From: Candidatus Altimarinota bacterium
GTDB lineage: Bacteria > Patescibacteriota > Gracilibacteria > UBA1369
Assembly (NCBI GenBank): GCA_963677745.1
Contig: OY782391.1
Span: 864,001 to 928,000 of the forward strand
DNA length: 64,000 nt
Direction of reading: 5' to 3'
Below the pieces are notes generated by a model that searched no databases, had not been told where the DNA came from, and worked only from the letters and a program-made list of their open reading frames with translations. Made by a program: the position numbers and the translations under genes. This document shows, in pieces, positions 26,472-53,830 of the stretch. Position 1 is the first letter of the stretch; each line of letters begins with the position of its first letter.

Positions 26472-27159
26472 GATCAATAAACCATTGTAGCACCGGGCCG
26501 GGGAAACCGCTCAGGCTGCTTTGCCATAAAAACAGCAGCATTTGTCCGACAAATCCGGCTGCCAGAGGAACGGTCAGATTATCATCCAGTTTGCCTGTCC
26601 ACAGTTCCACCAGACTGGCCGTCATGGCCATCGGCAGGAAAATTCTCCAGTCACCGGGAATCACCAGCATTCCAACCACCACATTCATCATCAAACCGGC
26701 CAAAAAACCTTCCAGTGTTTTCTTTCTGAACATGCGTGTGCGGCCTACGCTCATTCCTACCAGCGCAGCCGTAATATCGCCGAAAATCGTGCAGAGCAGG
26801 GCCAGCAGGGCGATCGGGTAGTCGTAGGCCGCAAAGCATATGATGGTCGAAGCAATAAAGAAGATGTTCCCGGCAATATTGTCTTTTTCATGACGACGCA
26901 GAATATCGATCACCAGAGGCAGTCTCAGTTTATATTCCAGCCTGATGTATTCAATTTCCAGCAGTATTATCAGTAATACCGTCAAAGCCAGTATACCCAG
27001 TTTGGGGCCGTACAGACTGGCCAGCAGCGTGTAGGTGAGAAGCACCGGCAGCTCCAGAAGATGGACGAATTTTCTCAATAATTCTTTCCGGAGCGCCAGT
27101 CTGTGTTCCTCGGTTTTTTTCTGCATCAAAGCCTGTTTTTGTTCTACAGAGATCTTCAT
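26455..27159 (-). CDS. CTP-dependent polyprenol/diacylglycerol kinase (SEC59/VTE5/DGK1 family)
   Basis: RK.VH, GD..AA.VG, KKT.EG, DDNL.VP; overlaps the A2M stop codon (ATGA). Confidence 0.85.
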   Translation of the reverse strand: MKISVEQKQALMQKKTEEHRLALRKELLRKFVHLLELPVLLTYTLLASLYGPKLGILALTVLLIILLEIEYIRLEYKLRLPLVIDILRRHEKDNIAGNIFFIASTIICFAAYDYPIALLALLCTIFGDITAALVGMSVGRTRMFRKKTLEGFLAGLMMNVVVGMLVIPGDWRIFLPMAMTASLVELWTGKLDDNLTVPLAAGFVGQMLLFLWQSSLSGFPGPVLQWFIDLIPIF

Positions 27160-30100: not shown

Positions 30101-33100
30101 TGAATTCCAAAGTGCCCAAGCCGTGTTCGGCGGTTTTGACGGTCTTCTTTTCCAGCAGTTTATCGTCGTAACTGTTTTCAAAATAATAATCTCCGTCCAC
30201 ATTCTTGCGTTTTACCGTGTTCCAGCTTCTTTCATAGAGCGCCACTTCCACTTCTTTCCCGGGCAGTTCCCGGCCGTCGCTGCTCACAGTGAGTACATCG
30301 AATTTGGCCGGCTTTTCCGTGTCGGCCAGATAGTCTTGACTGCGGATTCCCACATAGAATGATCCTTTGTGTACCGGGAAACTGATGCGGTTGGAGACGC
30401 TCTGATTATTGGCATCCGTTACGGAAGCTTCCAGCGTGTAGATTTGGCTTATTTTCTTGTCGCTGATATTGAGCGGCAAAGTCACCAGGGCCAGACCCTG
30501 TTCATCGGTTTTGCCTTTGCCCTGGCTGACTATGGAATTTTCTCCGACGCAGCCCCAGTAACAGAAATAACCTTCATCGGCGAAGCTGAACCAGCCTCCG
30601 GCCAGTTTGGCGGCCAGTTCTTCTGGCAGGATAAAATAATAATCCTGAGCCTTGAGAGTCCATCTGATTTCAGCGTCTTTGAGAGGTGCGCCGAAGAAAT
30701 ACCCGGCTTCCACCCTCACGTTGGCGCTTTGATTGTTCACATATTCTTTTTTGTCGCTGGAAAGATCCAGTTTGTATTCCGGCTTGCGGTATTCATAAAC
30801 CTTGAAGGAAGCGTAAAATTCCGTCATCCAGGAGGGACCTTTGGCATCCAGCAATTCAGTGTGAATCGAGAAGTCGCCGGTCGGAATTTTGTCCCCCAAA
30901 GTCAGTTTGCCGATAAAGGTGCCGTTGTTGCTGATGGCCAGCTCCTGCTGGTAAATCTGATTGCTCTGGGCATCGTTGATGGTAACTTTAACTTTTTTCA
31001 GGTCTGGCAGTTTGAATTTATAATCTTTTTCCTGGCGGACAATGCCCTTGAAATAGACCTCCTGTCCCGGCCGGTAAATCGGACGGTCGGTGTATTGATA
31101 CAGATAATATTCCGGGGAAACCGGTTCCGAATTGATATTGAAATTCCAGGGGGCGATTCCTTCGCTCCAGCTGGTATGGACAAAGCCCGTATCATTTTCG
31201 CGGTCGCCAAAAACCAGGAAATCTCTGTAAAAATCTCCGCTGGCCCCAGGCAGTTTGATTCTCGCCAGTCCGCTGGCATCCGTTTCTCCGCTGGCCGCCT
31301 CGGTATGCAGCGCGTCCATTACCGTGATTTTCTCACCGGCAACAGGTTTACCGTCCTTCAGATCGGTGGCCCAGACCAGCATTTCGGTCAAAGTGGTTTT
31401 GATGGCCAGTGAAGTCTTGCTGACCACGAAGAGAGTTTTCTCGATTTTCGGAACTTCATGACAACCCGGATTTTCTTTTGACTGCCACTCATAGACACAT
31501 TCGGTGGTGGTGACTTTGGGGTTGCCGAGTTCCAGATAGTAAAAACCGCCGGCCAGTTTACCGCCGCTCAGGGCATCCAGATCAAGGGCGGTGTGGCCCT
31601 TCTCATTGAAGCCCAGTGTGACGGCCAGTTTACCTTCAAAATCAAAATCTGTCAGAGACTTGAAGGTTTCATTATTATAATCGATATAACCCTCAGAATA
31701 TAATCTTGAAAACTGTTCCGGGGTCAGTTTCTTTAGTTTGAAAGCCGCATAATCGATATTGACCGATTTTACGTAAAACCTGCTGGCCTGATAGCCGTCC
31801 AGTACGCTCAAATCGGTGCCCTTTTCCAGATCCAGTGCCGGTTTGGAAGCGGGTGTCGTGAATTTCAGTTCGGTTTTTTCATTGTAACCGTTTCCGAAAT
31901 AATCTTTGACGCCCGGGTCGATCGTAATTGTATAGTCGGTGGAAGGCAGATAATTATATCCAATATGAACTGAAGTATCGGTATATGTAACCACCTCTAC
32001 CGGAACCGGACTGCCCTTTTCGTCCTTCTGGGAAGGCTCTATCCGCACCTTGCCGCGGAAGCTGCGCAGATCCAGGGGGTTGCTGTAGCCGAAAACCGGA
32101 TATATAGAATTTGGATCGTCATTGTTTTTACTGTCTGATGAAAGCAGTTTCAATTCACCCAGAGTTCTCATTTCATAATTGACATCATTACCGGTGGTAA
32201 GCGGTCCCTCCGCGCCTTTCAGACCTTTTCTGATTTGCAATGCATAATTGGTGTCCGCTTTCATTTTTTGGGAAGGTGAAATAACCAGCATTTTTTGCAG
32301 CTCATCTTCCTTGAGAACTTCAACCTTGTCACCTTCTCCCGAAGAAGCAGTGGTGGGGGCTTCCTTGATCTCTTCATATTGACTCATTTCCGTGATTTCA
32401 ATCAGCCGCTTTTGCTGCTCTTTCCAGTCATCGGCTGTAAAATATCTCACGGATATGCCTTCCTCATTGGTTTTATTGTCTTCAACCCTGTTCAGCTTAA
32501 TCAGTTCTTTGGCGCTGCCCAGATCCACCTTCTGGTTAAAACTAATCACAAACCGGCTGCCGGTGGAGACCTGATAGGAATTTTGCGTATCAGTAGTGTG
32601 CCAGTTCTGCGCTTCGGGCCGGAGTGTCTCAAAGCTGGAAGTAAACTCGCCTTCCGTATAACCGCCGTCCAGCACCTGTGTGCCCTGCGGGATAGTCACC
32701 TTATAAGCGGTGGACAGGGCCAGTTTGTCGGGAATGAACTGAATGGCCGAGGTGCCCAGCCACTTGAAGCGGCCCTGAACATAAGGTTCAATCTTGATAT
32801 TGGGGAAATTCTCCCGGCCCGCATCCAGTGTGGTCAGTCCGGTCAGGGGACGGTCAAACATGATATTGATCTTACTGTCTGCCGTTATCGCCTTGGAACC
32901 GTCATTGGGAGTCATCAGCACCACCTTGGGCGGGGCGACGATTTTATAGAATTCACTGTAATCGCCGGCCAGCGGTTTCTGGAGGAAACTGACAGCTTCC
33001 TTGCCGACGGTGATCTTGTAGGTATCGCCGATTTTCAATTGCTCGGCCGGCTTGAAGATCAGGCTGTTGCCCTGCCAGCTGAAAGTACCTTTGGTTTCCG

Positions 33101-33536
33101 GTTCAATGCGGAAAGCTTTTTCCACCGACGCGTTGTTCATCAATTGGTTGAAAGTGATTTTCAGCGGGGCATTGACCGAAATATTACGGGTACCGCCTTT
33201 CATCAGATAACCCTGAACGGTAGGGGCGGGAATCATTGGATAAGAAATTATTCCGGCCAGTACCACCACCACCAGTGTGCCCAGTGCCATTGCCCAGCCT
33301 CTGACCCTGAAATCGGACCACAGACTGAAACGTTTCTCTGTCTTTTCCTTTTTTGATGTATTCATAGTGTGGTGTTTTTCAAGTAATTGATTTTTTAAAT
33401 TTTGTGAAAACTGCCGGTCGGCCGGTTGCGGTCCGTTCGATTTAATGGCATCGGTTAGCTCGGACCATTGTGGGTCCTTCCCGCTGTTCTCCAGCCTTTT
33501 TTCCAGCTCCCTGATTTTTTTATTGGGTCGCAGCAT
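27156..33536 (-). CDS. Membrane-anchored alpha-2-macroglobulin with Ig-like repeats and a cytoplasmic N-terminal extension
   Basis: YTDRPIYRPG, EY.KP, LAVVDE, LPDNLTTW, thioester motif FPYGCTEQ, STTQE, TYFPEV.GR; TM helix around aa 82-100. Confidence 0.93.
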   Translation of the reverse strand: MLRPNKKIRELEKRLENSGKDPQWSELTDAIKSNGPQPADRQFSQNLKNQLLEKHHTMNTSKKEKTEKRFSLWSDFRVRGWAMALGTLVVVVLAGIISYPMIPAPTVQGYLMKGGTRNISVNAPLKITFNQLMNNASVEKAFRIEPETKGTFSWQGNSLIFKPAEQLKIGDTYKITVGKEAVSFLQKPLAGDYSEFYKIVAPPKVVLMTPNDGSKAITADSKINIMFDRPLTGLTTLDAGRENFPNIKIEPYVQGRFKWLGTSAIQFIPDKLALSTAYKVTIPQGTQVLDGGYTEGEFTSSFETLRPEAQNWHTTDTQNSYQVSTGSRFVISFNQKVDLGSAKELIKLNRVEDNKTNEEGISVRYFTADDWKEQQKRLIEITEMSQYEEIKEAPTTASSGEGDKVEVLKEDELQKMLVISPSQKMKADTNYALQIRKGLKGAEGPLTTGNDVNYEMRTLGELKLLSSDSKNNDDPNSIYPVFGYSNPLDLRSFRGKVRIEPSQKDEKGSPVPVEVVTYTDTSVHIGYNYLPSTDYTITIDPGVKDYFGNGYNEKTELKFTTPASKPALDLEKGTDLSVLDGYQASRFYVKSVNIDYAAFKLKKLTPEQFSRLYSEGYIDYNNETFKSLTDFDFEGKLAVTLGFNEKGHTALDLDALSGGKLAGGFYYLELGNPKVTTTECVYEWQSKENPGCHEVPKIEKTLFVVSKTSLAIKTTLTEMLVWATDLKDGKPVAGEKITVMDALHTEAASGETDASGLARIKLPGASGDFYRDFLVFGDRENDTGFVHTSWSEGIAPWNFNINSEPVSPEYYLYQYTDRPIYRPGQEVYFKGIVRQEKDYKFKLPDLKKVKVTINDAQSNQIYQQELAISNNGTFIGKLTLGDKIPTGDFSIHTELLDAKGPSWMTEFYASFKVYEYRKPEYKLDLSSDKKEYVNNQSANVRVEAGYFFGAPLKDAEIRWTLKAQDYYFILPEELAAKLAGGWFSFADEGYFCYWGCVGENSIVSQGKGKTDEQGLALVTLPLNISDKKISQIYTLEASVTDANNQSVSNRISFPVHKGSFYVGIRSQDYLADTEKPAKFDVLTVSSDGRELPGKEVEVALYERSWNTVKRKNVDGDYYFENSYDDKLLEKKTVKTAEHGLGTLEFKFAKGGVYKVEATGKDEKNNQIVSSTTVYVSSGDFVNWGSENNDKIELVTDKMEYKVGDTARVMVKSPYRNVYALVTYEKDKVLDQKVIKLESNSQTIEVPITEKFLPNVFVSVVLMKGNAYDAGLTAPAEGAPDERQVAAFKVGYATLQVNTEGKRLNIDIKSDKARYSPGETVKLTVKTTDAGAQPVAAELSLAVVDESVLSLTESVTADLLNIFYRKRLLGVNIAHTLTKAISRINVQVEAGMKGGGGGDTEKRATFKDTAYFEATLNTDANGEGTLEFKLPDNLTTWQVLAIGISNDTKSARALVGSNKYSFLSNKDILVRPVLPRFMTKGDRMQISAIVHNYTDTDQALKVTLESGELQILDGTEKSATIVAKGSQKLNWQVTVGAADQAKISFTAVANGGERGDSVEQTLPVKESSFPEVVAMAKVLSTDAKEIEQVWLPIGLNLKDGSLRITAAATLAGSIGEGLKYLVSFPYGCTEQLTSAILPNVAAKRLLNTGKFKIEGVTAAIVDKNVETGLQELYKNQQASGGFGLWINSQPRAYLTAYVVNTMNEAEKAGYKIDKDVYDSALQYLKNYLPQKADANESEDYRLNTKAYVMYVLGEAGKGDLGMLNSLYEKKDQLRLISRSYLLMAFQNQLSEKASEKSTSDKIEALRKDLENSSIQTPRGVSFQEKNLDYSLFDTNTRTTAVIMKALNRVNPENPLIPKILQALLRERKGGHFSTTQETAIGLLSMIEYLEKSKELTPAYQALVDINGKNIIDTNFTSKNLFEVKETKIPLTDLLPNNLDNEVAAQKIGDGRLYFDMNLEYYLPLKDQKAENEGIEVVQEYFTIEDSKLQTPVTTAKAGQNLHGKLTIIVPEDRHYVMIEDFLPAGLEGIDFNLKTSEMNLQAGDGKGGDGKGCGYYCYGDWYFNHSEVRDDRVMYFADYLPRGVYEIDYYLRATSVGNFADLPTLAQETYFPEVFGRSAGKLFNVTE

Positions 33537-41927: not shown

Positions 41928-44504
41928 ATGTCCAAAAAATCTAAAAGACCGTTCTGGCATTGGCTGTTATTGGTGCTGGGATCTTTATTTTTATCGGTTC
42001 TGGCGGGATACCTGTATATTGCCTGGCTGCTGCCGCTGCCCGACAGTCTGGATCTGCGTCCCAGGCACGTTTCCACCAAGATTTATGACCGGAACGGTCA
42101 GTTGCTCTACGAGGTCTTGAGCAAGGGAGAAGGAAGGAAAACTTATTTAAGACTGGATGAAATGCCGCTGCTTTTTCAGAAAGCAATAATCGCCAGTGAA
42201 GACAGCGATTTTTATTCCCATGCCGGAGTTGATCCGGGAGCAATTGCCCGGGCGCTTTTTTATAATTATCTGGAACAAAAAGTCACCAGCGGGGCCAGCA
42301 CCATCACGCAACAGCTGGTCAGAAATTTGCTGGGGACCAACCGTGAGCGGAACCTCCAGGAGAAATTATTGGAAACCGTTTATGCCATCCGCATCAGTCA
42401 TGCCTACAGCAAGGAGAGGATTCTGGAAGAATATCTGAACACTGTTTATTTTGGCAATTTGTCCTATGGCGTGGCCGAGGCCGCCCGCAATTATTTCGGA
42501 AAAAATCTGTCCGATCTGGATCTGGCGGAAATTTCCATCCTGGCCGGTCTGCCCAAAGCCCCTTCCGCCTATAATCCGCTGGTAAATCCGGAAAAGGCCA
42601 AAAAAAGACAGCAGTATGTGTTGGGGCGCCTCGTGGCGCAGGGCGATATCACGGCCGCCCGGGCCGAAGAGGCGGCCGCCCGCGTGCTGCATTTCAAGAG
42701 CGGCAAAACCGCCATCGAGGCGCCCCATTTCGTCCACCACGTGCTGGCCCAACTGGAGGAAGAATACGGGCATGATTTTGTCTATAGCGGAATTTCCGTA
42801 CGCACCACTCTGGACCTGAATTTGCAGCAGGAAGCCCAAAAAATCGTCAACCGCCAGCTGGATCTGTTGAAACAGAAAAATGTCGGCAACGCCGCCCTCC
42901 TGGCCGCCACCGTGCCGGACGGGCAGGTACTGGTCTGGCTGGGCAGCCGAGATTATTTTGATGATTCCATCGACGGCCAGGTGGACATTATCGGCGCTGC
43001 GCGCCAGCCCGGCTCCGCCCTCAAACCGTTTCTCTACCTGCTGGCCTTGGAAAACGGCGACACTCTGGCCAGCCTGATCGAGGACTTGCCCATCAAGGTC
43101 AAGACGGAGGGCGGCGTCTATTCACCGCTCAACTATGATCTGGACTTCCACGGCCCGGTTCGGCTGCGTGAAGCTTTGGCCAATTCTTTCAATATTCCCG
43201 CGGTTAAAACCCAGGAAAAACTGGGCACTTCCCGTTTTCTGAATTTCCTGCGCCGCCTTGGTATGGATACCCTGGATCAGGATCCTGAATATTATGGTCT
43301 GGCCCTCACTCTGGGAGGAGGGGAAATCCGGCTGGCCGACCTGGCCAACGCTTATCTGACCTTGGCCGATTACGGTCGAAAAAAAAATTTCAGCACCATT
43401 CTGGAAATAACAGACGCTTCCGGCGGCACCATTTATAAATGGACTGCCCCGCTTTCCTCCCGTGTCCTTGGAGCCAACGGCGAACAGAATGCCTGGCTGA
43501 TTGCAGACGCACTTTCCGACCCCAACGCCCGTCTGAAAAGTTTCGGAGAAGGTAATGTCCTGGAACTCTCTGTCCCGGCCGCCGCCAAAACCGGCACCAC
43601 CCGTAATTTTCGCGACAACTGGACTTTTGGCTTCACGCCGCAGCTTCTGACAGCGGTTTGGGTTGGCAATTCCGATGCCACCCCCATGGAAAACATTTCC
43701 GGAATCGACGGCGCCGGCCCGATCTGGCACGATTTCATGACACTGGCCTACGAAAAACTCCCCGACACCCCCGTTTCCTCCACTGTCGATATTCGTAAAG
43801 GTAAGAAAAGTAAGAATAATCTTACAAATCTTACTTTTACCGACACCGCAAGTAGCCCGTTGCTCCCTCCCCCCCGCCTGATTGAACAGCAGATTTGTGC
43901 TGTATCCGGGCTGGCGGTCAGCGAAAATTGCCAGGAAAGCCTGAATGAATGGTTCATTGAGGGGACCCAGCCGCTTCAAAAGGATTATTTCTGGCAAAAA
44001 TACAGCTGTGGCGCGGTCAATAGCGGCACAGCTGCTCCGGCCGATGAGCCCGCCGGCAGCGTCCGGTATTTTATTAACTATCCTTTTGTGTATCAAAATT
44101 GGGCCAAGGAAAGGGGTTTCCTGCCCACTCCCGACTGCCGGCCGCTGCCTCCGGAAAACCTGCCGGCGGCGTCCGCCGATTTGCCGCCCCTGCAAATTGT
44201 TTCCCCGCTGGCCGGAGATTCCTTTCAGATAAACGCAAATCTGCCTCTGGACAGCCAGAAAGTCCCGCTTAAAATTATTGTCTACCCGGCCCGTTTTACT
44301 GACCAGTCCAATCCGCCTAGCCAAATTGAGCTGATTATCAACGGAAAAGTGATCAAAAGCCAGTCATTGAGCGGCTCCGCCGCTCCCCTGGAAATAAAGG
44401 AATTTTGGTTACCCGAACGCGGCCTGCAGCAAATAGAAGTCCGGATTACCTCAGAGAATAAGGCAGAACTGGCAAAAGACAGCGTGCAGTTCAGTGTGGA
44501 GTAA
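41928..44504 (+). CDS. pbpC: Class A penicillin-binding protein, PBP1C-like
   Basis: SED..FY.H.G, GASTITQQ, SALK, SFN, KTGT; C-terminal I.SP..G Ig-like domain. Confidence 0.85.
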   Translation: MSKKSKRPFWHWLLLVLGSLFLSVLAGYLYIAWLLPLPDSLDLRPRHVSTKIYDRNGQLLYEVLSKGEGRKTYLRLDEMPLLFQKAIIASEDSDFYSHAGVDPGAIARALFYNYLEQKVTSGASTITQQLVRNLLGTNRERNLQEKLLETVYAIRISHAYSKERILEEYLNTVYFGNLSYGVAEAARNYFGKNLSDLDLAEISILAGLPKAPSAYNPLVNPEKAKKRQQYVLGRLVAQGDITAARAEEAAARVLHFKSGKTAIEAPHFVHHVLAQLEEEYGHDFVYSGISVRTTLDLNLQQEAQKIVNRQLDLLKQKNVGNAALLAATVPDGQVLVWLGSRDYFDDSIDGQVDIIGAARQPGSALKPFLYLLALENGDTLASLIEDLPIKVKTEGGVYSPLNYDLDFHGPVRLREALANSFNIPAVKTQEKLGTSRFLNFLRRLGMDTLDQDPEYYGLALTLGGGEIRLADLANAYLTLADYGRKKNFSTILEITDASGGTIYKWTAPLSSRVLGANGEQNAWLIADALSDPNARLKSFGEGNVLELSVPAAAKTGTTRNFRDNWTFGFTPQLLTAVWVGNSDATPMENISGIDGAGPIWHDFMTLAYEKLPDTPVSSTVDIRKGKKSKNNLTNLTFTDTASSPLLPPPRLIEQQICAVSGLAVSENCQESLNEWFIEGTQPLQKDYFWQKYSCGAVNSGTAAPADEPAGSVRYFINYPFVYQNWAKERGFLPTPDCRPLPPENLPAASADLPPLQIVSPLAGDSFQINANLPLDSQKVPLKIIVYPARFTDQSNPPSQIELIINGKVIKSQSLSGSAAPLEIKEFWLPERGLQQIEVRITSENKAELAKDSVQFSVE
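43784..43845. repeat. GTAAGA/TCTTAC palindrome, copy C, in frame inside the PBP gene
   Basis: GTAAAGGTAAGA-AAA-GTAAGA-ATAA-TCTTAC-AAA-TCTTACTTTTAC flanked by TGTCG/CGACA. Confidence 0.6.
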
Positions 44505-45065: not shown

Positions 45066-45193
45066 CCCCAAAGTTTAAATTTAAACTTTAAGATCGCTTT
45101 TACTCAAGGTAAAAAAGCGGTCGCACTACTATGTACGTCAAGTTCAGACTTTATGTACATCGATGTTTATTTATCTATCTATTTATTCTAATT

Positions 45194-48100
45194 ATGGATT
45201 TATCCACAACATTTGCGTCAATTCGCAAACAAGTTGCTGGTCTTAGCTTGGTAGCACTCGTTGCAGGTCTCTTTGCAGCAGGTGTTGCTACAGCCGCAAC
45301 TGAGAATATTTTCTCAGATGTTCCAGCCGATGCGTGGTATGCAGGTTATGTAAATGACCTCGCTACTGCGGGAGTAATCGACTCCACAAAAGATATGTAC
45401 AGACCAGGTGACCTGGTCAACAGAGCTGAAATGGGCAAGTTTGCCTTCATGGTTTCCGGACTTCCTCTGGAGACTGCTTCAGCCGCTCCTTACAAGGATG
45501 TCGCTATGGGCCAATGGTATACAGATTATATCTATACCCTGACCAAGAACGGCATCGTCAGCGGAGACAAAGCCAATGGTGTCCCCACCGGTTATTTCAG
45601 ACCGGAAGCTCCTTTGAACAGAGCTGAGGCCGCCAAGATGCTTGTCAATGCTGCTGCCATGGCCGAAGACATTACAGGAAATCCTCATTTCCCTGATGTC
45701 ACTTCCGGCGCCTGGTATTTCAACTTTGTTGAAACAGCCTTCAATAACGGTGTTGTATCCGGCTATCCGGATGGCAACTACAGGCCTTCCAACAACATCA
45801 ACAGAGCAGAAGCCGCCAAGATGGTATTCCTGAGCATGAACCCGGTTGCTGCCGGCTTCACTCTGGATTCCGCCGCCGCTGCTTCCAAGACTACTGTTGA
45901 ACTGATCTTCTCGATGAACGTTGACTCCACTCTTGCTGCTGACGAAGCCAACTATCTCATCGAAGACTCAAGTGGTACCAAGCTCATAGTTTCCGCCGCT
46001 GAAGTAACAGCTGCCGACACTGTTATGCTGACTACCAGCACACAGACAGAGGGCAAAGTATATTATGTAACTGCCAAGAATGTGGAATCCGATGCCGGCG
46101 ATGCTCTCGCTAGCAGCGATTCCGTATCATTCCTCGGCTACGGTGCCGACGTCAGTGGTGGAGCTCTTGAAGTAGCTCTTTCCACACAGACTCCGGTTGC
46201 CGGATCCATTCCAAGTGGTGCTACAGGCGTAGTATTTACTTGTTGGGATTTCATGGCTGGTTCCAGCGATGTGACAGTTAAATCTGTTCACGTACATCGC
46301 GTAGGCCCAGGTTCACAAGGTGATTTTGACAATGTTTACCTGTACAATGGTGATCAGAGACTTACCACCGGAAGAACAATCAGCAGCGAAACTCAATTGG
46401 TTGAGTTCAACAACATCAACCAGGAGGTTGCCGCTGGTGACAACATGAAGCTCTGCGTAGTTGCAGATCTTAAAGCTGGTGCAAACGGAGGCGTACACGC
46501 TTTTGAACTTGCTTCAGCCGATTCAGTTATGAGCAACTCTTCAGACATGACTGGCTCCTTCCCGCTCCGCGGTGCCGATCAACTGATTACCTCTGCCCAA
46601 GTAGGCAAGAGCTACATCAGAAGAAACGGTACTCTGAACGAGGCCACCATTGGTGAAAAGGGTGTCAGAATTGCCCAGTTCGAGATCGAAGCTGACGGTT
46701 CAGAAGACCAGCAGCTCGAAAGAGTAGCTTTATATGTGAGAGGATCCATCAGCACAGGTGCAGTTTCCAACATGAAACTGTTTGTTGAAGGAGATTCCAC
46801 AGCTCTGGCCGCCACCGATGCCGTTGGTGCCAAAGAATTGGCTACCTTCTCTCTGGACAAACCATTCAAGATTGGACGTGGTATGAGAAAGATTTTCTAT
46901 GTCACGGGCGATCTGAATCCTGGCAAGAACGGTGATACTATCAAGATTTATCTTGATGAAACCACTGATCTTAACGTAACCGGAACAACTTACGGTTATG
47001 GAACCAGAGTCGACGCTACCAAATATGACGGTGGCGACGGTGCTGACCTTTTGGTCAACACATCTGATGATGAATATTCTTATGTCACCATCAAGGGTTC
47101 CGACTTCGTAGCTAACTGGACAGGTCCTTCCGCCTCCAATATTCCGGTAGGACAAAAAGCCGTAAGCTGCTTGGATCTGACCCTCACCAACTCTTCCGGT
47201 GAAGATCTCGAGATCAAAGACTGGGAAGTTGATGTAGCTGTTGCTCCAATCGTAGTAGCCGCCGATGGTGGTCTCTACAACGCGACAAACTCGACTCCAA
47301 ACTACACTCTCTTCAAGCTCGCCAGGATCAATGACGATGGAACCCTCGGTGGTTCCCTGCTTGGTCCAAACGAACTTCCAGGTGTAGTTGATGCTCTTCA
47401 AACCGTTAAACTTGGTGGAAGTGCCAACATCACTGCCGGTGAAACTGTCAAGGCCGCTGTCGTATTCGACATTGCCAACAACACTCTCATGAACGGTGAT
47501 AAAATCACTTGTACCCTGAAGGCCTTGAATGGCTCAGGCAAGGATTATATCCGCGATATCAATGGAGATGCCTTAACAGCTTCGTCCATTACTCCTTCTT
47601 CCGACATCGTCGGTAATCCTCTCAAAGTGGTAGATGCCGCTTTGAAGGTGAAGGTTGCTTCCACTCCTGCTTCTCAGACAGTTGTAAAGGGTGTAAGCGA
47701 TGTCAGCCTGCTCGGTATTTCTCTGGAATCCGGAGTTTTGGATTCCACACTGAAGACTATCAGCATTGCATCTGCTATCGATACAGCTCCAGCAGCTGTT
47801 CCAGCAGGTGATGCAGACGTTCTCCTGACACAAAGGGTTGAGAGCGGCAAGGCCACCAAGGATGTGGTCACCAACCTCAAACTTTATGATGGGGCAACTC
47901 AGGTGGGTACAGTGGAAAGCATCAATGATTCCACAGGAAAAGTAACCTTCAACAACCTCAGCGTATCTATTCCGAAAGGAACAACTAAACTGTTGGTTTT
48001 GAAAGGTAACATCTCCAACTCCACTTACACTGATACTCTGATCAAGTTTGGTGTTGTCGCTAATACAGACATCACTGCTCTTGATAACAACAGCCAGACA

Positions 48101-49492
48101 ATTTCCGGTATCAGCACAGTCAATGCCGAAAACGGCTTGAATGCAGGCGCAAACCTCATTCCAAGTGCTACCGGTACTACCATCACCATTAAGGATGCTG
48201 GTACTGTCAATGTTGCTTCTACCAGCCAATACACATCCAAACTGATTGGTGGTGGAGTAACTGCTGAAAAGATTGGCAACATCAAGTTCAACATGACTAA
48301 TGCTCCTGCCACGCTTGATGACTTCGTTCTGTCCGTATTGGGCGAACCAGCCGGTCTGCAAACTGTTTATCTGTTTGACTCCAGCTGTTCAACAGCCAGG
48401 GGCTCAGCCACAGGTTATTCTGTAACCGGTGGAACAGTCACCGTAACTGATGCCGCCATTGCTCTGCCAATTGGACAAACCACACTCTGTATCAAGGGTG
48501 ATTTTGCTCCGGTCAGCAGCACTCTGGTTGACCCACCAGTATCCGGTAAATTCGTTGCCATCGCTTTGACTGAAGTAAATCAGATCACATCCGGTGGTTC
48601 CGATATCAACGGTAACTTTGCTTCCTCAGTTGGTACAGAGACCGTTGGTATGACCGCTATTGCCACCAACCCCACCCTTTCCGGTGCTGTTGCTGCTGGT
48701 GACGTTGTTAAGATCGACGAAGAGTTGATGTATGTATCTTCAATCGGTCCAGTAGTAGTTATCAGAGGTTTTGCCGGTACAGCTGCCAATGCGCATTCCG
48801 CAGGCGCCGCCTACCAGGTATTGACCTCCGGAGTAACCAAACTGTTTGAATTGAATACTGCCACCTATAACAGGGGCACTGTTCTTTCCGATGGTACAAA
48901 CTACTTAATGTGTTTGAACCCAGTTTGCGCCGTAGCCGCTACAGATCAGTTGATCATCTCCGGTGTTACATTTAACCCAGCAGCTACCGCTCTGGATGTT
49001 AAATTTAACCAGGCAGGTGAAGCCTTCAAACTCAGAAAGGCTGCTCCAACTTTGGCTCTCTCCAACTCTGTAGTAGGAGGAAACACGCTCGCCACCTCGA
49101 CTCAGTTCGCTGTTGCAGCATTCTCCATTACAGCTGCAGGTGTGGGCGCAGTTGAATTCCAGCCAACCGATGCTATGAACTTTACAGTCGGCACCGGAAC
49201 AACTGTCAACTCTTGTGCTTTATACGGTCCAGGCGACCAGAAGTTATCTACCAACGATGCTTCACCAGCATCTATTGCTTTCGACAATGTAAGTGCATGG
49301 TCGATTTCAGCAGGTGAAACCAAAGTTCTCACTGTAAAGTGCGATCTGACCACAGTTGGTGGTGATGATTTCCAGATGACATTGGATAGTTTTAGCTACA
49401 GTGACGGAGTAGTTGCCAATATTACCGGCGACACCTCATTGATTGTTAATACTCTGCCAATCGCTGGCCCAACATTTACCAGACCCACATAG
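45194..49492 (+). CDS. S-layer protein with N-terminal SLH domains
   Basis: Signal peptide; three SLH repeats (FSDV...WY, NRAE x3); Thr/Ala/Gly-rich beta-sandwich repeats; distinct codon usage suggesting high expression. Confidence 0.9.
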   Translation: MDLSTTFASIRKQVAGLSLVALVAGLFAAGVATAATENIFSDVPADAWYAGYVNDLATAGVIDSTKDMYRPGDLVNRAEMGKFAFMVSGLPLETASAAPYKDVAMGQWYTDYIYTLTKNGIVSGDKANGVPTGYFRPEAPLNRAEAAKMLVNAAAMAEDITGNPHFPDVTSGAWYFNFVETAFNNGVVSGYPDGNYRPSNNINRAEAAKMVFLSMNPVAAGFTLDSAAAASKTTVELIFSMNVDSTLAADEANYLIEDSSGTKLIVSAAEVTAADTVMLTTSTQTEGKVYYVTAKNVESDAGDALASSDSVSFLGYGADVSGGALEVALSTQTPVAGSIPSGATGVVFTCWDFMAGSSDVTVKSVHVHRVGPGSQGDFDNVYLYNGDQRLTTGRTISSETQLVEFNNINQEVAAGDNMKLCVVADLKAGANGGVHAFELASADSVMSNSSDMTGSFPLRGADQLITSAQVGKSYIRRNGTLNEATIGEKGVRIAQFEIEADGSEDQQLERVALYVRGSISTGAVSNMKLFVEGDSTALAATDAVGAKELATFSLDKPFKIGRGMRKIFYVTGDLNPGKNGDTIKIYLDETTDLNVTGTTYGYGTRVDATKYDGGDGADLLVNTSDDEYSYVTIKGSDFVANWTGPSASNIPVGQKAVSCLDLTLTNSSGEDLEIKDWEVDVAVAPIVVAADGGLYNATNSTPNYTLFKLARINDDGTLGGSLLGPNELPGVVDALQTVKLGGSANITAGETVKAAVVFDIANNTLMNGDKITCTLKALNGSGKDYIRDINGDALTASSITPSSDIVGNPLKVVDAALKVKVASTPASQTVVKGVSDVSLLGISLESGVLDSTLKTISIASAIDTAPAAVPAGDADVLLTQRVESGKATKDVVTNLKLYDGATQVGTVESINDSTGKVTFNNLSVSIPKGTTKLLVLKGNISNSTYTDTLIKFGVVANTDITALDNNSQTISGISTVNAENGLNAGANLIPSATGTTITIKDAGTVNVASTSQYTSKLIGGGVTAEKIGNIKFNMTNAPATLDDFVLSVLGEPAGLQTVYLFDSSCSTARGSATGYSVTGGTVTVTDAAIALPIGQTTLCIKGDFAPVSSTLVDPPVSGKFVAIALTEVNQITSGGSDINGNFASSVGTETVGMTAIATNPTLSGAVAAGDVVKIDEELMYVSSIGPVVVIRGFAGTAANAHSAGAAYQVLTSGVTKLFELNTATYNRGTVLSDGTNYLMCLNPVCAVAATDQLIISGVTFNPAATALDVKFNQAGEAFKLRKAAPTLALSNSVVGGNTLATSTQFAVAAFSITAAGVGAVEFQPTDAMNFTVGTGTTVNSCALYGPGDQKLSTNDASPASIAFDNVSAWSISAGETKVLTVKCDLTTVGGDDFQMTLDSFSYSDGVVANITGDTSLIVNTLPIAGPTFTRPT

Positions 49493-49526
49493 TCTGTAGT
49501 GTTGTAGAAAACTAATTCTTAGTTTT

Positions 49527-49574
49527 AAGCCCGCATGGAACCCCGCTTCGGCGGGGCCCCCAGCGGGCTTTTTT
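49527..49574 (+). terminator. Intrinsic terminator of the S-layer gene
   Basis: AAGCCCGC...CCCCGC-TTCG-GCGGGG...GCGGGCTT plus T-run. Confidence 0.85.
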
Positions 49575-49589
49575 GTGCCTGTTTAACTA

Positions 49590-49618
49590 TTGACAAATAT
49601 ATGAAAATATTGTATCAA
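49590..49618 (+). promoter_or_regulatory. Promoter TTGACA-N17-TATCAA of lipoprotein gene 1
   Basis: Same relative position as the promoter in unit 2. Confidence 0.6.
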
Positions 49619-49697
49619 ATAGATGTCAAGTTGACCTTCGACATTTAGCTCCCGATTCCGAGGAGGGAAGAAGGGAGGAAAGGGAAAGGAAAAAAAC

Positions 49698-50609
49698 ATG
49701 AAGCGCTACGGATTTGGACTGTTTGTGGTGGCTGGCATGCTGATGCTGTCGGCGCTGCTGGGGCAGGCCTGTGTGTTGGATACATACGGGACACTGTTCG
49801 CTGACGGCGGCGCGGATGCCGGTCCGGACTGCAACGCTCTCTGCGAGGAAGCGGCTGCAGGAAGCTCCGGAAATGCCGGAACTGCCGGTCAGGGCACGCC
49901 CGATGTGGATGTGCCTGACACCTGCGACTGCGGAGATGCCGGAAGCGGTGGATCTGCCGGAGCAGGAGGTACTGGTGGAAGCGCCGGAACGGGCGGAGCC
50001 ACCGGCGGCACCGGAGGCTCGGCCGGACAAGGCGGAGCAACCGGAGGTACTGGCGGATCTGCCGGAAGCGGCGGAGAAGCTGGACAAGGAGGAACTGGCG
50101 GAGCAGCCGGAGGCGGCGGTCAGGCCGGACAAGGCGGAGCCGGCGGTTCGGGGCCAACCTGCGTAGTGGCAGGAGACGACGGAACTATCAACAAGATCAC
50201 CGCCGAAGCCATCCGGGTCTATCTGCACTATGCAGACGATTCCGAGACGTTTCTGTCCTACAGCCCGGTCAACTTCAGCTTCGATACCAAGCCGCTGTCC
50301 GCTCAGGCTGTTGTCTTGGGCAGCAATGGGCTGAGCTTCGGACTGTGGCATGATTCCACGCCTACACCCACTGTGCTCTATACAATTGATGAGGCAACCT
50401 TGCCGGCCGCAGAATGCACCGGAGTCGACATCAGGAGCATCGAGTGCAGCCGGATCTTGGCGAAGAGTTTCAGGTGCCAGTTCCCGCCCTACAACGAGGT
50501 GGTCGGCTGTCCAGCCAACGTTGCGTTCACCGCGCAGCTGGCCAGTGACAGCTATGCCGATCCGTCTGGGGGATACCAGATGGTACTCGCTGACATTTAC
50601 TGCCCCTAA
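49698..50609 (+). CDS. Gly-rich predicted lipoprotein with Cys-containing C-terminal domain (paralog 1)
   Basis: Signal peptide ending LGQAC; GGSAG/GQGG repeats; VYLHYAD...FRC domain. Confidence 0.8.
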   Translation: MKRYGFGLFVVAGMLMLSALLGQACVLDTYGTLFADGGADAGPDCNALCEEAAAGSSGNAGTAGQGTPDVDVPDTCDCGDAGSGGSAGAGGTGGSAGTGGATGGTGGSAGQGGATGGTGGSAGSGGEAGQGGTGGAAGGGGQAGQGGAGGSGPTCVVAGDDGTINKITAEAIRVYLHYADDSETFLSYSPVNFSFDTKPLSAQAVVLGSNGLSFGLWHDSTPTPTVLYTIDEATLPAAECTGVDIRSIECSRILAKSFRCQFPPYNEVVGCPANVAFTAQLASDSYADPSGGYQMVLADIYCP

Positions 50610-50646
50610 ACCCCAACCCCTCACCCGACTCAGAAAGGGAGTCAAA

Positions 50647-50784
50647 GTCGAAGTTCAACAACAGCTCGCCGACGCTTGAGTTGCCAAACAACCGCAAGGT
50701 AGTAGCAACGCAGGCCCAGGCGGAAAAGCAAGCCCCGCGCTGATCGTCCATACAGGACTTGATCGCGCGGGGCTCTTCGACGTG
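50647..50784 (+). ncRNA. Structured 3' RNA element, copy 1
   Basis: Repeat of 51725-51860 with compensatory changes. Confidence 0.7.
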
Positions 50785-50800
50785 TTTTTTTACGCCCAGA

Positions 50801-50828
50801 TTGACAAAATTAGAAAAAAACGTATAAG
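50801..50828 (+). promoter_or_regulatory. Promoter TTGACA-N16-TATAAG of lipoprotein gene 2
   Basis: Near-consensus hexamers. Confidence 0.6.
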
Positions 50829-50905
50829 TATAAGAGTAACATTGATCTTCGACATACACGCTCCCATCCCTGAAAAGGGACAATGGAAGGGAAAGGAAAA
50901 TTCCG

Positions 50906-51652
50906 GTGAACAACAAGTACAATCATTTCGTCTGGTTTTTCTGCCTGTTAACAGGCTGTCAGAGTGACGATGCCGCACTGTTCGGCGAAGGAGGAGCTCC
51001 CGCCGGCGGAAACGGCGGCGCTGGAGGTGAAACGGGCATCGCCGGACAGGGCGGCACCGCAGGAACGGCTGGAGCCGGTGGAATTGCCGGTTCGGATGCC
51101 GGCGGCGCTGATGCAGGTGCCGGAGGAACTGCCGGTAGCGGTGGAATCGCCGGCAACGGAGGAAATGGAGGCGCCGGCGGCGCTCTGCCTCTGGTCTGCA
51201 CTCCTGGTGCGGCCGACAACCCTGCCTCATGGTCGATCAACGGCGGGACCAAAGCATCGGTCTATCTGCGCTACGCAGACGGCACCGAGGGCTACAGCAC
51301 CGCCAACCCCAGTAACATCAACTTCCCGCTGGATTTCCCGGGACAACTGGTGGGGTCCACGGCCGACGGCATGACTATCAACCTGATCTACAACTCAGGC
51401 TCGGCGCCCGGCAACGACTTCTACCAGGTGACGACGGACAACGTACCGGAATGCGCCGGAACGAACTTCTACAGCCAGGCCTGCGACCAGAAGGTGGCCC
51501 AGGACTTTCGCTGCCTCTACTTTCCTGCAGAGGAAGCGGATTGCGGCAACGTCAAGGCGGCCTTCCTCTCGCTGGGGAAGCAGAAGTCGTACTCGGCGGC
51601 CTTCGCCGGCAACCGGAAAGTGCTGGTATCCGTCCGCTGTTCCTCGCCCTGA
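50906..51652 (+). CDS. Gly-rich predicted lipoprotein with Cys-containing C-terminal domain (paralog 2)
   Basis: Lipobox LTGC; GG.AG repeats; VYLRYAD...FRC domain. Confidence 0.8.
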   Translation: MNNKYNHFVWFFCLLTGCQSDDAALFGEGGAPAGGNGGAGGETGIAGQGGTAGTAGAGGIAGSDAGGADAGAGGTAGSGGIAGNGGNGGAGGALPLVCTPGAADNPASWSINGGTKASVYLRYADGTEGYSTANPSNINFPLDFPGQLVGSTADGMTINLIYNSGSAPGNDFYQVTTDNVPECAGTNFYSQACDQKVAQDFRCLYFPAEEADCGNVKAAFLSLGKQKSYSAAFAGNRKVLVSVRCSSP

Positions 51653-51724
51653 ACCGGTCCTGCCGCAACAGCATATTTCCCGCCGTCCCATGTCTCCCAC
51701 CGAACCCCGATTCCATCGGGAGCA

Positions 51725-51860
51725 GTCGAAGATCAATGGCATCTCGCCCAGGCTTGAGTCACCAGACAACCGCAAGGTAGTAGTGACGCAGGCCAAAGCG
51801 GAAAAAAAGGCCCCGCGTGATCGTCCTTCCGGACTTGATCGCGCGGGGCTCTTCGACGTG
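51725..51860 (+). ncRNA. Structured 3' RNA element, copy 2
   Basis: Repeat of 50647-50784. Confidence 0.7.
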
Positions 51861-52316
51861 CCTGCCCGGCTCCAGCCCCCGCCCGAGCCCTGCAAAGTAT
51901 TGCTGCATGCAAATCGCGCCAGAAAAAATTTAACTAAAATTAACCGAAACTTAATCCTGATTTGTCATGATTGCGTCAATTTATCATGTCATTTCCGCTG
52001 TATGCTGCCGCTTCTGACCTCTGTCCTGATCTGGCTGCTGTTTATGGCCGTTTCCGGCCATCCGCCGCTGTCGCCGGGTTGAACCATTCTGTCTGCCACT
52101 TTTGTGCCCGGGCCCAAATTTATCCCGAATTTATCTTCATTTCATGCCGGCCTGCCATAATCAGACCCGGTCAGCTGCCCTCACGGCCCGGGCCCGGCTC
52201 AATCTAAATGCCCTGGAATAGCTCCGCGCCCCGGGCAGCTGCTCAAAAGACAATTTTCTTGGTATACATTCCCCGGTTTGGCATCGGCGTTTTTTTGTAC
52301 TATATTCAGCTCAGTT

Positions 52317-53078
52317 ATGAATACCAAACAAAATCTGGAAATTGTGACCCAGCTGGTGCGCGGGGAGTTCAAACTCCGCTATAAATCCTCTTTGCTCGGC
52401 TACTTTTGGACCCTCTTCAAACCACTGATGTTGTTTGGGGTGATTTATCTGGTTTTTTCGGTTTTCCTGAAAAGTCCCATGGAAAATTATTCGGTTTATC
52501 TGCTGCTGGGTATCATCCTCTGGACCTTTTTCACCGAGGCCACCATGACCGGAATGAACAGCCTGATCAGCAAACGCGACCTGATCACCAAAATCTTTTT
52601 CCCGCGCGAAAACCTGGTATTTTCCGCCACTCTTTCCAGTCTGATCACTCTGCTTCTGAATCTGGTTATCTTTGCGGTTTTCTTTTTCGGCGCCGGCCTG
52701 CATCCGGGCTGGAGCGCCCTGCTTTTTCTGCCTTATCTGGTTTTGCTGTTTCTCTTCACCACCGGCATCTCTTTGATTTTGGCCAGTCTTTATGCCCGTT
52801 TTCATGATCTCTCCCATATCTGGGAAGTGATCCTGCAGATCCTGTTCTGGATCACGCCTATCGTCTATGATCTGTCTTTTGTGCCGGAGCAGTATCGCAC
52901 CTGGCTTTACCTCAATCCCATGACCCAGTTTATCTCCTTTTCCCGCCGGATTTTTTTGATTGACCAGGTGCCTTCCCTCAAACAGCACGCTGTGCTTTTG
53001 CTCACCAGTCTGCTGGTATTCGGTATCGGTTACTGGTTTTTTAAAAAACAGGAATACAAAGTAGCGGAAATGATCTAA
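52317..53078 (+). CDS. wzm: Glycan ABC exporter permease
   Basis: FKLRYK.S.LG..W..., TPI.Y, LNP. Confidence 0.92.
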   Translation: MNTKQNLEIVTQLVRGEFKLRYKSSLLGYFWTLFKPLMLFGVIYLVFSVFLKSPMENYSVYLLLGIILWTFFTEATMTGMNSLISKRDLITKIFFPRENLVFSATLSSLITLLLNLVIFAVFFFGAGLHPGWSALLFLPYLVLLFLFTTGISLILASLYARFHDLSHIWEVILQILFWITPIVYDLSFVPEQYRTWLYLNPMTQFISFSRRIFLIDQVPSLKQHAVLLLTSLLVFGIGYWFFKKQEYKVAEMI

Positions 53079-53083
53079 CCTCA

Positions 53084-53830
53084 ATGACCCACCAAATTAC
53101 CCTCCAAAATCTGTCCAAAAGCTTCCAGGTGCCGCATCAGCGCCGCACTACCCTCAAGGACAGTTTTGTCGATTTTCTGGCGGTGGGGCTGTGGCGGCGG
53201 CCCGTCAATGAGAAGTTTTTTGCTCTGCAGGAAATCAATCTGCAGGTTAGTCCGGGAGAATTTGTCGGCATTATCGGGGCCAACGGCTCGGGCAAATCCA
53301 CTTTGCTTAAAATACTGGCCGGCATTTACCGGCCGGATCACGGTCAGCACGAAGTCCATGGAACCATCGCTCCGCTGCTGGAACTGGGGATCGGTTTTCA
53401 GCAGGATCTGTCCGCCCGCGACAATATTTTCATCAATGCCGCTCTGCTCGGACTTTCCGCCCGGCAGACACATCAGCTGCTTCCGGAAATAGTGGAATTT
53501 GCCGAAATCGGACATTTTTTGGATCTGAAAATTAAAAATTATTCATCCGGTATGCGCCAGCGATTGGCTTTTGCCATCGCCGCTCACATCAATGCCGACA
53601 TCTACCTTTGTGATGAAGTCTTTGCGGTGGGAGACGAAAATTTCCAGGCCAAATGTCTGCGCGTTTTTCAACTGTGGCGCGAAGCCGGCAAAACCATACT
53701 GCTGGTTTCCCACAACACCACTCAAATTGCCACCATCTGCGACCGGGCCATCCTGCTGAAGGAAGGACGGATTGTGGCTGACGGCGGCGCACCGGAAGTG
53801 GTAGCCTGCTACCAGCAAAATATTTTATAA
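53084..53830 (+). CDS. wzt: Glycan ABC exporter ATPase, no C-terminal CBM
   Basis: GANGSGKST, YSSGMRQRL.F, DEV.AVGD..F; 248 aa. Confidence 0.92.
   Translation: MTHQITLQNLSKSFQVPHQRRTTLKDSFVDFLAVGLWRRPVNEKFFALQEINLQVSPGEFVGIIGANGSGKSTLLKILAGIYRPDHGQHEVHGTIAPLLELGIGFQQDLSARDNIFINAALLGLSARQTHQLLPEIVEFAEIGHFLDLKIKNYSSGMRQRLAFAIAAHINADIYLCDEVFAVGDENFQAKCLRVFQLWREAGKTILLVSHNTTQIATICDRAILLKEGRIVADGGAPEVVACYQQNIL

Follow-up and report, generated by a model that had tools for sequence, protein, structure and literature searches.

Bacteria of the candidate phyla radiation (CPR) are thought to live attached to other cells, and the molecules that mediate this contact are almost unknown. In bacterial lipoproteins, the signal peptide ends in a lipobox with the consensus [LVI][ASTVI][GAS]C, and in Shine-Dalgarno (SD)-poor bacteria such as Bacteroidota a few genes keep strong SD-like leaders while the 16S rRNA retains its anti-SD, with a bS21-based mechanism. 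For the lineage considered here, the accessible parts of two publications report that Peregrinibacteria are frequently without bS21 (PMC9297842), and that Peribacteria encode at least four Lgt copies, surface-layer (S-layer) genes and strain-variable exported Cys-rich proteins weakly similar to Myxococcus repeat proteins (Anantharaman et al. 2016, PMC4736985). We analysed a stretch of 64,000 nucleotides (the window, G000:C1:864001-928000) of a genome, G000, that consists of a single contig of 1,335,835 bp with 47.4% GC. Two adjacent open reading frames (ORFs) in this window, ORF1 and ORF2, lie between an S-layer-type gene and the glycan-export genes wzm/wzt and glycosyltransferases, a placement already recognised in a previous reading made from the letters of the window alone (hereafter the sequence-only reading), which had taken their products for host-derived or host-mimicking surface proteins of myxobacterial style, with messenger RNAs (mRNAs) tuned to a host's ribosomes. 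Our analysis leads to a different account, in which ORF1 and ORF2 are probably native, lineage-restricted and fast-diverging Peribacteria surface lipoproteins whose translation and RNA are controlled by signals of their own, resident genes of an envelope locus with no recent import.

ORF1 and ORF2 are paralogues, and they are the sole two copies of their protein family in G000. Their products align by BLASTP with 30% identity over 164 amino acids (aa; E 2e-8), and the motifs VYL.YAD, EC.G, C, FRC and a terminal C are invariant in this pairwise alignment, confirming the shared Cys-patterned domain described in the sequence-only reading; the Gly-rich linkers described there are present as well. 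Both N-termini (MKRYGFGLFVVAGMLMLSALLGQAC in ORF1 and MNNKYNHFVWFFCLLTGC in ORF2) show a charged n-region followed by a hydrophobic h-region, as judged from the sequence, a layout also present in most full-length relatives. The lipoboxes that had been proposed stand in part: that of ORF2, LTGC (Cys18), is canonical, whereas Cys25 of ORF1 is preceded as GQAC, which is less so; relatives carry VAGC, VSGC, VTSC, LPGC and AQGC at this position. Lipid anchoring of both proteins is predicted because G000 encodes the machinery for it, with three Lgt copies (PF01790, each above cut-off) and one LspA (PF01252). Pfam and NCBIfam scans of ORF1 and ORF2 gave nothing significant, the collagen-like Scl2/SclB adhesin model NF038329 reached 14.9 bits in ORF1 against a cut-off of 325 and over the linker only, and the matches of a PDB sequence-profile search were likewise confined to the low-complexity linker.

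A phmmer search of 1.84 billion representative proteins returned 38 hits with E <= 1e-3, of which 15 reached <= 1e-10, in libraries that carry no taxonomy, so that the 38 may include other phyla. The 24 relatives that were aligned mostly have a signal peptide ending in Cys, a low-complexity linker and the C-terminal domain (C-domain), in which five cysteines are invariant and the sixth is kept in most; some relatives bear additional CGNG..E.CDG repeats. Whole-genome searches recovered homologues in four of the 35 further genomes from the same taxonomic family, in none of the 169 genomes of the order's other 18 families and in none of 400 genomes sampled across the phylum. A GTDB-wide scan, made with one genome per species and a single motif of clade II of the protein family, yielded 35 candidate stretches, two of which were confirmed, both from metagenome-assembled genomes (MAGs) named 'uncultured Candidatus Peribacteria bacterium'. 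Since 'Candidatus Peribacteria' MAGs are the only named relatives with a homologue, the organism is a CPR bacterium, as had been supposed; relatives in the same order and class have genomes of ~1-2 Mb. None of the 28 stretches of viral contigs that fit the pattern was confirmed, and a word-index homology search with the ORF1 C-domain recovered the query alone among 141 candidates.

The tree of the protein family has two main clades (support 93/89), with ORF1 in clade II and ORF2 in clade I, so the two genes are old paralogues and not the result of a recent duplication. Behind its lipobox (window 49770-49935), ORF1 has an N-terminal module that reads C.LD..G.LF, then D.G.DC..(L/I)CEE, then ..CDCG; it is common to P0008, P0003 and the first lipoprotein gene of genome G582, and thus to both clades.

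The locus is syntenic in relatives where its context was read, with a shared layout of S-layer gene, lipoprotein gene or genes, and wzm/wzt. The wzm gene lies 3' of the lipoprotein gene(s) in G582, which belongs to the same genus, in G556 and on a 93-kb metagenome contig (L021), and the upstream sequence of G582 (L016) and of L021 holds an S-layer-like gene; for G550, the upstream part of the locus only was read. Two lipoprotein genes stand in tandem in G582, and one each is present in G556, G550 and L021. Within this layout, the coding parts of the lipoprotein genes have changed much more rapidly than the genes beside them and their own untranslated ends: identity to G000 is 78-90% for wzm, 73-79% for wzt and 81% for the large glycosyltransferase, and the structured elements that follow the lipoprotein genes are 69-74% identical across genomes to the one behind ORF1, against 30-41% for the lipoprotein C-domain and no match for the S-layer C-terminus. 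Such fast coding divergence between conserved flanks fits diversifying selection on surface proteins, or allele replacement by recombination.

The element behind each gene (Table 1) appears to be an undescribed cis-RNA tied to the lipoprotein family. Its two copies in G000 are 80.5% identical in alignment A7 and 85% identical by BLAST, and copy 1 folds with a minimum free energy of -70.5 kcal/mol (z -5.65), which none of 200 shuffled sequences equalled. The consensus from five instances (both G000 copies, G582, G556 and L021) contains 34 predicted base pairs, eight of them with compensatory changes, and these eight include all five pairs of stem P2, whose variants are GUUGC/GCAAC, GUCAC/GUGAC, GCUGU/ACAGC, GCCGC/GCGGC and AUCGC/GCGAU. 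The loop within P2 is conserved over 20 nt (CAAACARCCNCNRGGUAGUA). Searched across 36 genomes of the taxonomic family, a covariance model gave strong matches in four: G000 (161.6 bits for copy 1 and 153.4 for copy 2), G582 (107.4), G556 (105.5) and G581 (63.9). The G581 match lies at a contig end and shows a further compensatory change in the loop stem; all other strong matches stand beside lipoprotein genes. The full element is thus found in G000, G582, G556, G581 and L021, and a weak, degenerate copy follows the first of the two G582 genes. In an Rfam search of the whole window only six tRNAs reached the gathering score, and the element itself scored at best 16.5-17.3 bits in E-value mode, against a gathering score of 50 (best E 0.083). 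A simple terminator scanner included neither the copy 1 nor the copy 2 hairpin in its output.

Several further candidates were rejected. A third match in G000 (G000:C1:969210-969331, minus strand) shares the terminator hairpin alone and does not represent the full element. Of 32 stretches from a metagenome pattern scan, 31 were without the P2 stem and the flanks and were taken as chance, L021 alone being genuine. A regulon built on the CTTCGAC box is likewise not supported: 17 of its 213 occurrences in the genome are intergenic, which is in line with the 9% non-coding fraction and represents no enrichment. Separately, the read-through tails of P0015, P0019 and P0024 share the pattern 'VGQ(Q/K)T.S..RS', which, judging from protein sequence, may be a translated form of the 3' element.

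Conservation extends to the 5' side of both genes. All seven aligned upstream regions (A8) contain an unchanged TTGACAA, and their homologous promoters and leaders also share a TGATCYTCGAM box, a GCUCC motif and a purine tract. The AT-rich character of the promoters, noted in the sequence-only reading, was borne out, and a strict consensus promoter scan left the TTGACA/TATCAA site of ORF1 out of its output. The sequence ..AAGGGAAAGGAAAA.. precedes both the ORF1 and the ORF2 start, with AGGA 7-8 nt ahead of the start codon. In 6 of 6 folded leaders, CUCC(C/U) is predicted to pair with GGGAG or GGAGG of the purine tract, and we claim these hairpins only as a conserved arrangement.

These leaders stand out in a genome that is largely SD-less. 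GGAG, GAGG or AGGA occurs at -18..-5 in 3.7% of 1067 longest-ORF starts, compared with 12.0% of 6394 internal ATG controls; G is depleted to about 0.1 upstream of G000 starts, and the leaders of recA, nusA, pcrA/uvrD and the S-layer gene are A/T-rich and without SD. Other members of the taxonomic family are SD-poor as well (3-15% in larger samples of five genomes, and 9 of 241 genes in 3.7-20 kb from 20 further genomes). The contrast drawn in the sequence-only reading between the SD-like leaders of ORF1 and ORF2 and the rest of the genome is therefore correct. Its proposal that the mRNAs are translated by a host's ribosomes is unnecessary, because the 3' end of the 16S rRNA of G000 (...GGAUUACCUCCUUUCU / ..CCUCCUUUCU) carries an intact anti-SD (CCUCC), and the duplexes of the two leaders with this tail reach -10.4 kcal/mol for ORF1 and -10.5 kcal/mol for ORF2, within the top 0.75% of 1067 genes with a median of -1.3.

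The base composition of the two genes is also unusual, as had been noticed. ORF1 and ORF2 form an island of 58-70% GC in a 47% GC genome, with window values of 0.65-0.70 over 49700-50149 and 0.62-0.66 over 50900-51649 between flanks of 0.44-0.50. In the linkers, GC at the first and second codon positions (GC1/GC2) is 0.77-0.82 and GC at the third position (GC3) is 0.51, compared with a genome mean GC3 of 0.531 (sd 0.071, 1068 ORFs), so that the GC richness of the linkers comes from their Gly/Ala codons and their synonymous sites are native. In the C-domains, GC3 is raised to 0.714 in ORF1 (z 2.6) and 0.815 in ORF2 (z 4.0), while the S-layer gene has 0.453. The synonymous-site anomaly is real and limited to the C-domains. 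Orthologues of the two genes have 57-62% GC in genomes of 42-49% GC, and the GC of 25 sampled genomes of the taxonomic family (20 with 3.7-20 kb and five with 58-100 kb each) is 0.29-0.52, with no GC-rich in-family donor among them.

Strong SD pairing and high GC3 go together across G000. Ten of the 17 genes with GC3 >= 0.70 have an SD duplex of <= -8 kcal/mol, compared with 16 of the 1050 others (Fisher p 1.9e-13), and this enrichment at start sites is not compositional, because internal windows of the same 17 genes reach -8 kcal/mol in only 215 of 2498 cases (8.6%; binomial p 2.5e-7). The longest-ORF gene set omits ORF1, which is displaced there by an antisense ORF; ORF1 was scored separately and lies outside the count of ten in 17. 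This antisense ORF (339 aa, window 49626-50645, minus strand) overlaps ORF1 and is an artefact of the GC-rich repeat region. The high-GC3 class includes secreted Gly-/Cys-rich lipoproteins and two proteins with the MopE motif (PF11617), and most of the ten members scanned were without a Pfam match. Other high-GC3 islands with a GC of 0.63-0.69 lie at G000:C1:511747-515760, 850296-852698 (minus strand), 1307222-1311527, 99043-100053 and 1031471-1032010; the secreted proteins encoded there are one of 1337 aa that bears 20 MopE-type motifs (PF11617), a Cys-repeat protein of 800 aa, Gly-rich lipoproteins and a Pro-rich protein whose tail is collagen-like, and most have SD-like leaders. In the accessible parts of the literature on SD use in this group, we found no prior description of the pattern. 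Three explanations can be offered: selection may have preserved the signal of an old transfer from a donor that was GC-rich and used SD, a recombination-driven GC bias at a hypervariable locus may be the source of the GC3 anomaly, or the link may be functional, with GC-rich structured mRNAs depending on an SD.

An AlphaFold2 model of the ORF2 C-domain, built from a 26-sequence alignment, was predicted with confidence (mean predicted local distance difference test score 93.8, predicted template modelling score 0.88) and consists of eleven strands with two adjacent helices at residues 94-98 and 100-114. The model has no clear structural match in the PDB or in BFVD. A Foldseek search against the PDB gave no match at E <= 0.001 (best template modelling score 0.21), a BFVD fold search gave none at the same threshold, and VIA-align against 48,161 representative chains gave none with Z >= 5. 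The highest-scoring VIA-align chain is the FedF lectin domain, from the F18 fimbrial adhesin (Z 4.2, 75 residues aligned, root-mean-square deviation 2.7), and the weak top rows of the fold searches are mostly beta-sandwich lectin, carbohydrate-binding or adhesin-like domains, which would be compatible with a binding role and prove nothing.

The origin of the island can be weighed against these data. That a GC-rich stretch of another organism was joined by mistake, giving a chimeric assembly, would fit the abrupt change of composition at 49.6 kb and 51.9 kb, but its probability is negligible, as Logan contigs from four runs of two studies span both island boundaries with 0 or few differences. 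Contigs without any difference bridge the region in X1 (48800-50241 and 50212-52315) and X2 (48800-50629 and 50600-52648), contigs of the second study also cover it, and the same arrangement recurs in relatives, which also have homologues of the island's AT-rich promoters and leaders; a misassembly is excluded as far as the contigs show. In X3 and X4 of the second study, beside contigs identical to the window, there are contigs that connect position 50018, within the linker repeats, with position 50600, by the stop codon (side 30, 'between: not known'); they may reflect another allele of the C-domain of ORF1, a hint too weak to serve as evidence. A recent derivation from Myxococcota, whether as host-derived or host-mimicking genes with mRNAs tuned to host ribosomes, is very improbable. 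The locus is syntenic in several Peribacteria and homologues were found only in the same taxonomic family among the family, order and phylum genomes searched, the promoters are of the organism's own type, both leaders pair with the intact anti-SD of its 16S rRNA, and nothing indicates that mRNA is exported. The Gly-rich lipoprotein linkers, on which this origin had been proposed, and the Cys-rich modules are reminiscent of myxobacterial proteins, and the homologue P0018 does show a sub-threshold match to TIGR02232, the model of the Myxococcus cysteine-rich repeat (14.4 bits, with the cut-off at 20.8), but neither ORF1 nor ORF2 matches this model or any in Pfam. Because the Cys-rich proteins of Peribacteria weakly resemble Myxococcus repeats, according to the accessible parts of PMC4736985, the 'myxobacterial style' is a known trait of the lineage itself. 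Of the marks of a recent island, an atypical synonymous composition is seen in the C-domains, and absence or lack of synteny in relatives is not, as shown by G582, G556 and L021.

An old horizontal acquisition, in which the family and the other high-GC3, SD-bearing genes were passed to an ancestor of this Peribacteria family by a bacterium with high GC and SD use, possibly a host, and kept donor-like composition and SD for expression, is a live alternative but the less likely one on present evidence. It would be consistent with the GC3 of the C-domains (0.71-0.82 against 0.53), with orthologues of about 60% GC in much less GC-rich genomes, with the non-compositional concentration of SD-like leaders in high-GC3 genes, with the MopE-type repeats in several secreted Cys-rich members of this class and with the lack of a GC-rich donor among the sampled genomes of the taxonomic family. 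Nevertheless, the time in which the proteins diverged to 30-41% identity should have let any foreign GC3 signal decay, the linkers have native GC3, and different genera share homologous promoters, leaders and 3' elements that are specific to Peribacteria; a donor homologue did not turn up in the family, order and phylum genomes, the taxonomy-less protein libraries or the scan with one GTDB-wide motif, Myxococcota genomes not having been searched directly. The reading of ORF1 and ORF2 as native genes, which we prefer, has points of its own to answer. The GC3 of the C-domains is clearly raised, vertical descent under host mutation bias alone does not predict the GC-rich orthologues, and the joint occurrence of SD and high GC3 looks like a shared foreign signature. 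Also, the distribution is patchy, with homologues in few genomes of the taxonomic family, its apparent restriction draws on libraries without taxonomy and on a scan with one clade-II motif, and a distant homologue in G558 has a GC3 of 0.29 and is without the purine leader. Finally, the GQAC of ORF1 lies outside the lipobox consensus, the 5' leader hairpins are no stabler than shuffled sequences (z -1.15 to +0.26 for six leaders), and the terminator hairpin is followed by TTTTTTT in copy 1 of the 3' element while the same hairpin in copy 2 lacks a T-run.

If ORF1 and ORF2 are native surface lipoproteins, the following mechanism can be proposed. Each gene would be transcribed as a separate unit, from a TTGACA-type promoter through a conserved 5' leader to a conserved, structured 3' element that ends in a terminator hairpin. 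The purine tract of the leader would pair with the cell's own 16S tail, giving SD-dependent and possibly regulated initiation in an otherwise SD-less genome, and the 3' element probably either ends and stabilises the transcript or is the source of a 3'-derived small RNA. The Sec-dependent signal peptide would be cut by signal peptidase II (SPII) at the lipobox Cys, leaving the protein lipid-anchored in the membrane, from which the flexible, low-complexity Gly/Ala/Ser linker may act as a spacer through the wall and S-layer and present the compact C-domain of ~155 aa, presumably stabilised by its six conserved Cys, at the cell surface. There, the C-domain would most likely bind a partner cell, the S-layer or a glycan. 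More speculatively, Peribacteria may have two initiation regimes, with nearly all genes SD-less and a small GC3-rich, mostly secreted or surface set SD-paired, and the lipoprotein cassette may be controlled by a 5' hairpin, in which CUCCC masks GGGAG, and by the new 3' element; its conserved ends could then serve as recombination anchors for swaps of C-domain alleles between strains, giving a switchable, exchangeable partner-contact protein of unseen fold. We put this extended model forward tentatively and consider it improbable in its entirety.

The surroundings of the two genes show further conserved features (Table 1). The S-layer-type gene upstream has three Pfam SLH stretches (E 7.1e-32). 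Between the 3' element of ORF2 and wzm there is a second conserved non-coding block, common to L021 and G582, whose outer stem reads CAGCUGCCC/GGGCAGCUG in G000 and CAGCCGCCC/GGGCGGCUG in L021 and G582, a compensatory change; an Rfam search of this block gave no match. In G556, the 3' element of the lipoprotein gene is separated from wzm by an inserted low-GC ORF of 178 aa (L015 3637-4173), PIN-like by eye only. Farther upstream in the window, a bacterial alpha-2-macroglobulin of 2125 aa (27156-33536, minus strand) lies near a class A penicillin-binding protein (41928-44504), and both are part of a large cell-envelope neighbourhood.

Table 1. Coordinates of the lipoprotein genes, their control elements and neighbouring features, given as positions in the window.
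Feature	Position	Strand	Description
ORF1	49698-50609	+	303 aa, ATG start; signal peptide with Cys25, N-terminal Cys motif, Gly-rich tandem linker, six-Cys C-domain
ORF1 promoter-like site	49590-49618	+	TTGACA (49590-49595), 17-nt spacer, TATCAA; read from the sequence
ORF1 5' leader	49625-49697	+	TGACCTTCGAC box, GCUCCC...GGGAG hairpin, purine tract 49660-49696, AGGA at -11..-8
ORF1 Gly-rich tandem linker	about 49932-50147	+	repeats partly tandem, periods 39 and 45 nt
ORF1 C-terminal six-Cys domain	50145-50606	+	
3' element copy 1	50640-50790	+	P0 GUCGAAG/CUUCGAC, P1 GCUUG/CAGGC, covarying P2, 20-nt loop CAAACAACCGCAAGGUAGUA, GC-rich terminator hairpin, T-run
ORF2	50906-51652	+	248 aa, GTG start; signal peptide with LTGC (Cys18), Gly/Ala linker, six-Cys C-domain
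ORF2 promoter-like site	50802-50830	+	TTGACA (50802-50807), then TATAAG/TAAGTA -10 region; from the sequence and alignments A1, A8
ORF2 5' leader	50840-50905	+	GATCTTCGAC box, GCUCCCAUCCCUGAAAAGGGA hairpin, purine tract, AGGA at -12..-9
ORF2 C-terminal six-Cys domain	51179-51649	+	
3' element copy 2	51718-51866	+	same architecture as copy 1, P2 = GUCAC/GUGAC; no T-run after hairpin
S-layer-type gene (context, upstream)	45131-49492	+	1453 aa, SLH domains; likely true start ATG at 45194
S-layer gene terminator hairpin and T-run	49530-49580	+	read from the sequence; homologous hairpins 5' of the lipoprotein promoter in G556, G550, G582
Second conserved non-coding block	52100-52255		between ORF2 3' element and wzm; TTTTGTGCCCGGGC...GGCTCAATCNAAATGCCCTGGAA; common to L021, G582
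wzm (ABC-2 permease) and wzt (ABC ATPase) (context, downstream)	52278-53830	+	Pfam PF01061, PF00005; followed by glycosyltransferases

Compared with described systems, ORF1 and ORF2 resemble SPII lipoproteins, whose processing depends on Lgt and LspA, in having a signal peptide with a lipobox Cys, a flexible linker and a globular C-terminal domain in a genome that encodes both enzymes. They differ from them in that their C-domain has no Pfam, NCBIfam or PDB sequence match and no clear structural match, that the lipobox of ORF1 is atypical, and that their lipidation is a prediction. The Cys-rich extracellular proteins of Peribacteria, as portrayed in the accessible parts of PMC4736985, come from the same lineage, and they too are exported, Cys-containing, strain-variable and encoded near S-layer or glycan genes, with CGNG..E.CDG-type repeats in some members of the present family; they are large, however (mean about 1655 aa), and very Cys-rich, whereas the products of ORF1 and ORF2 have 248-303 aa, with Cys making up about 3% and with a six-Cys domain that is distinct. 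The likeness to proteins with TIGR02232 or MopE-type (PF11617) repeats is one of style, that is, secretion, a Gly-rich spacer and disulfide-rich modules, and PF11617 occurs in two other high-GC3 genes of G000, but neither model is matched by ORF1 or ORF2. The 'stolen from a myxobacterial host' story is thus without support here, and the family instead provides candidate surface proteins for a CPR bacterium.

The RNA signals of the locus have partial counterparts as well. As in the SD-led genes of Bacteroidota, a few strong SD leaders coexist with a retained anti-SD, but the SD set of G000 is defined by high GC3 and enriched in secreted proteins, and this link bears on translation start in SD-poor bacteria and on the expression of foreign or specialised genes there. 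The 3' element shares with structured 3' untranslated region (3'-UTR) and terminator elements, and with 3'-UTR-derived small RNAs, its location directly after the stop codon, a GC-rich end hairpin and a stable fold. It differs from them in its specific P1/P2 domain with a conserved 20-nt loop, which fits no Rfam family at threshold and was found only beside the lipoprotein family, and the locus thereby offers a new covariation-supported RNA motif tied to a family of surface proteins.

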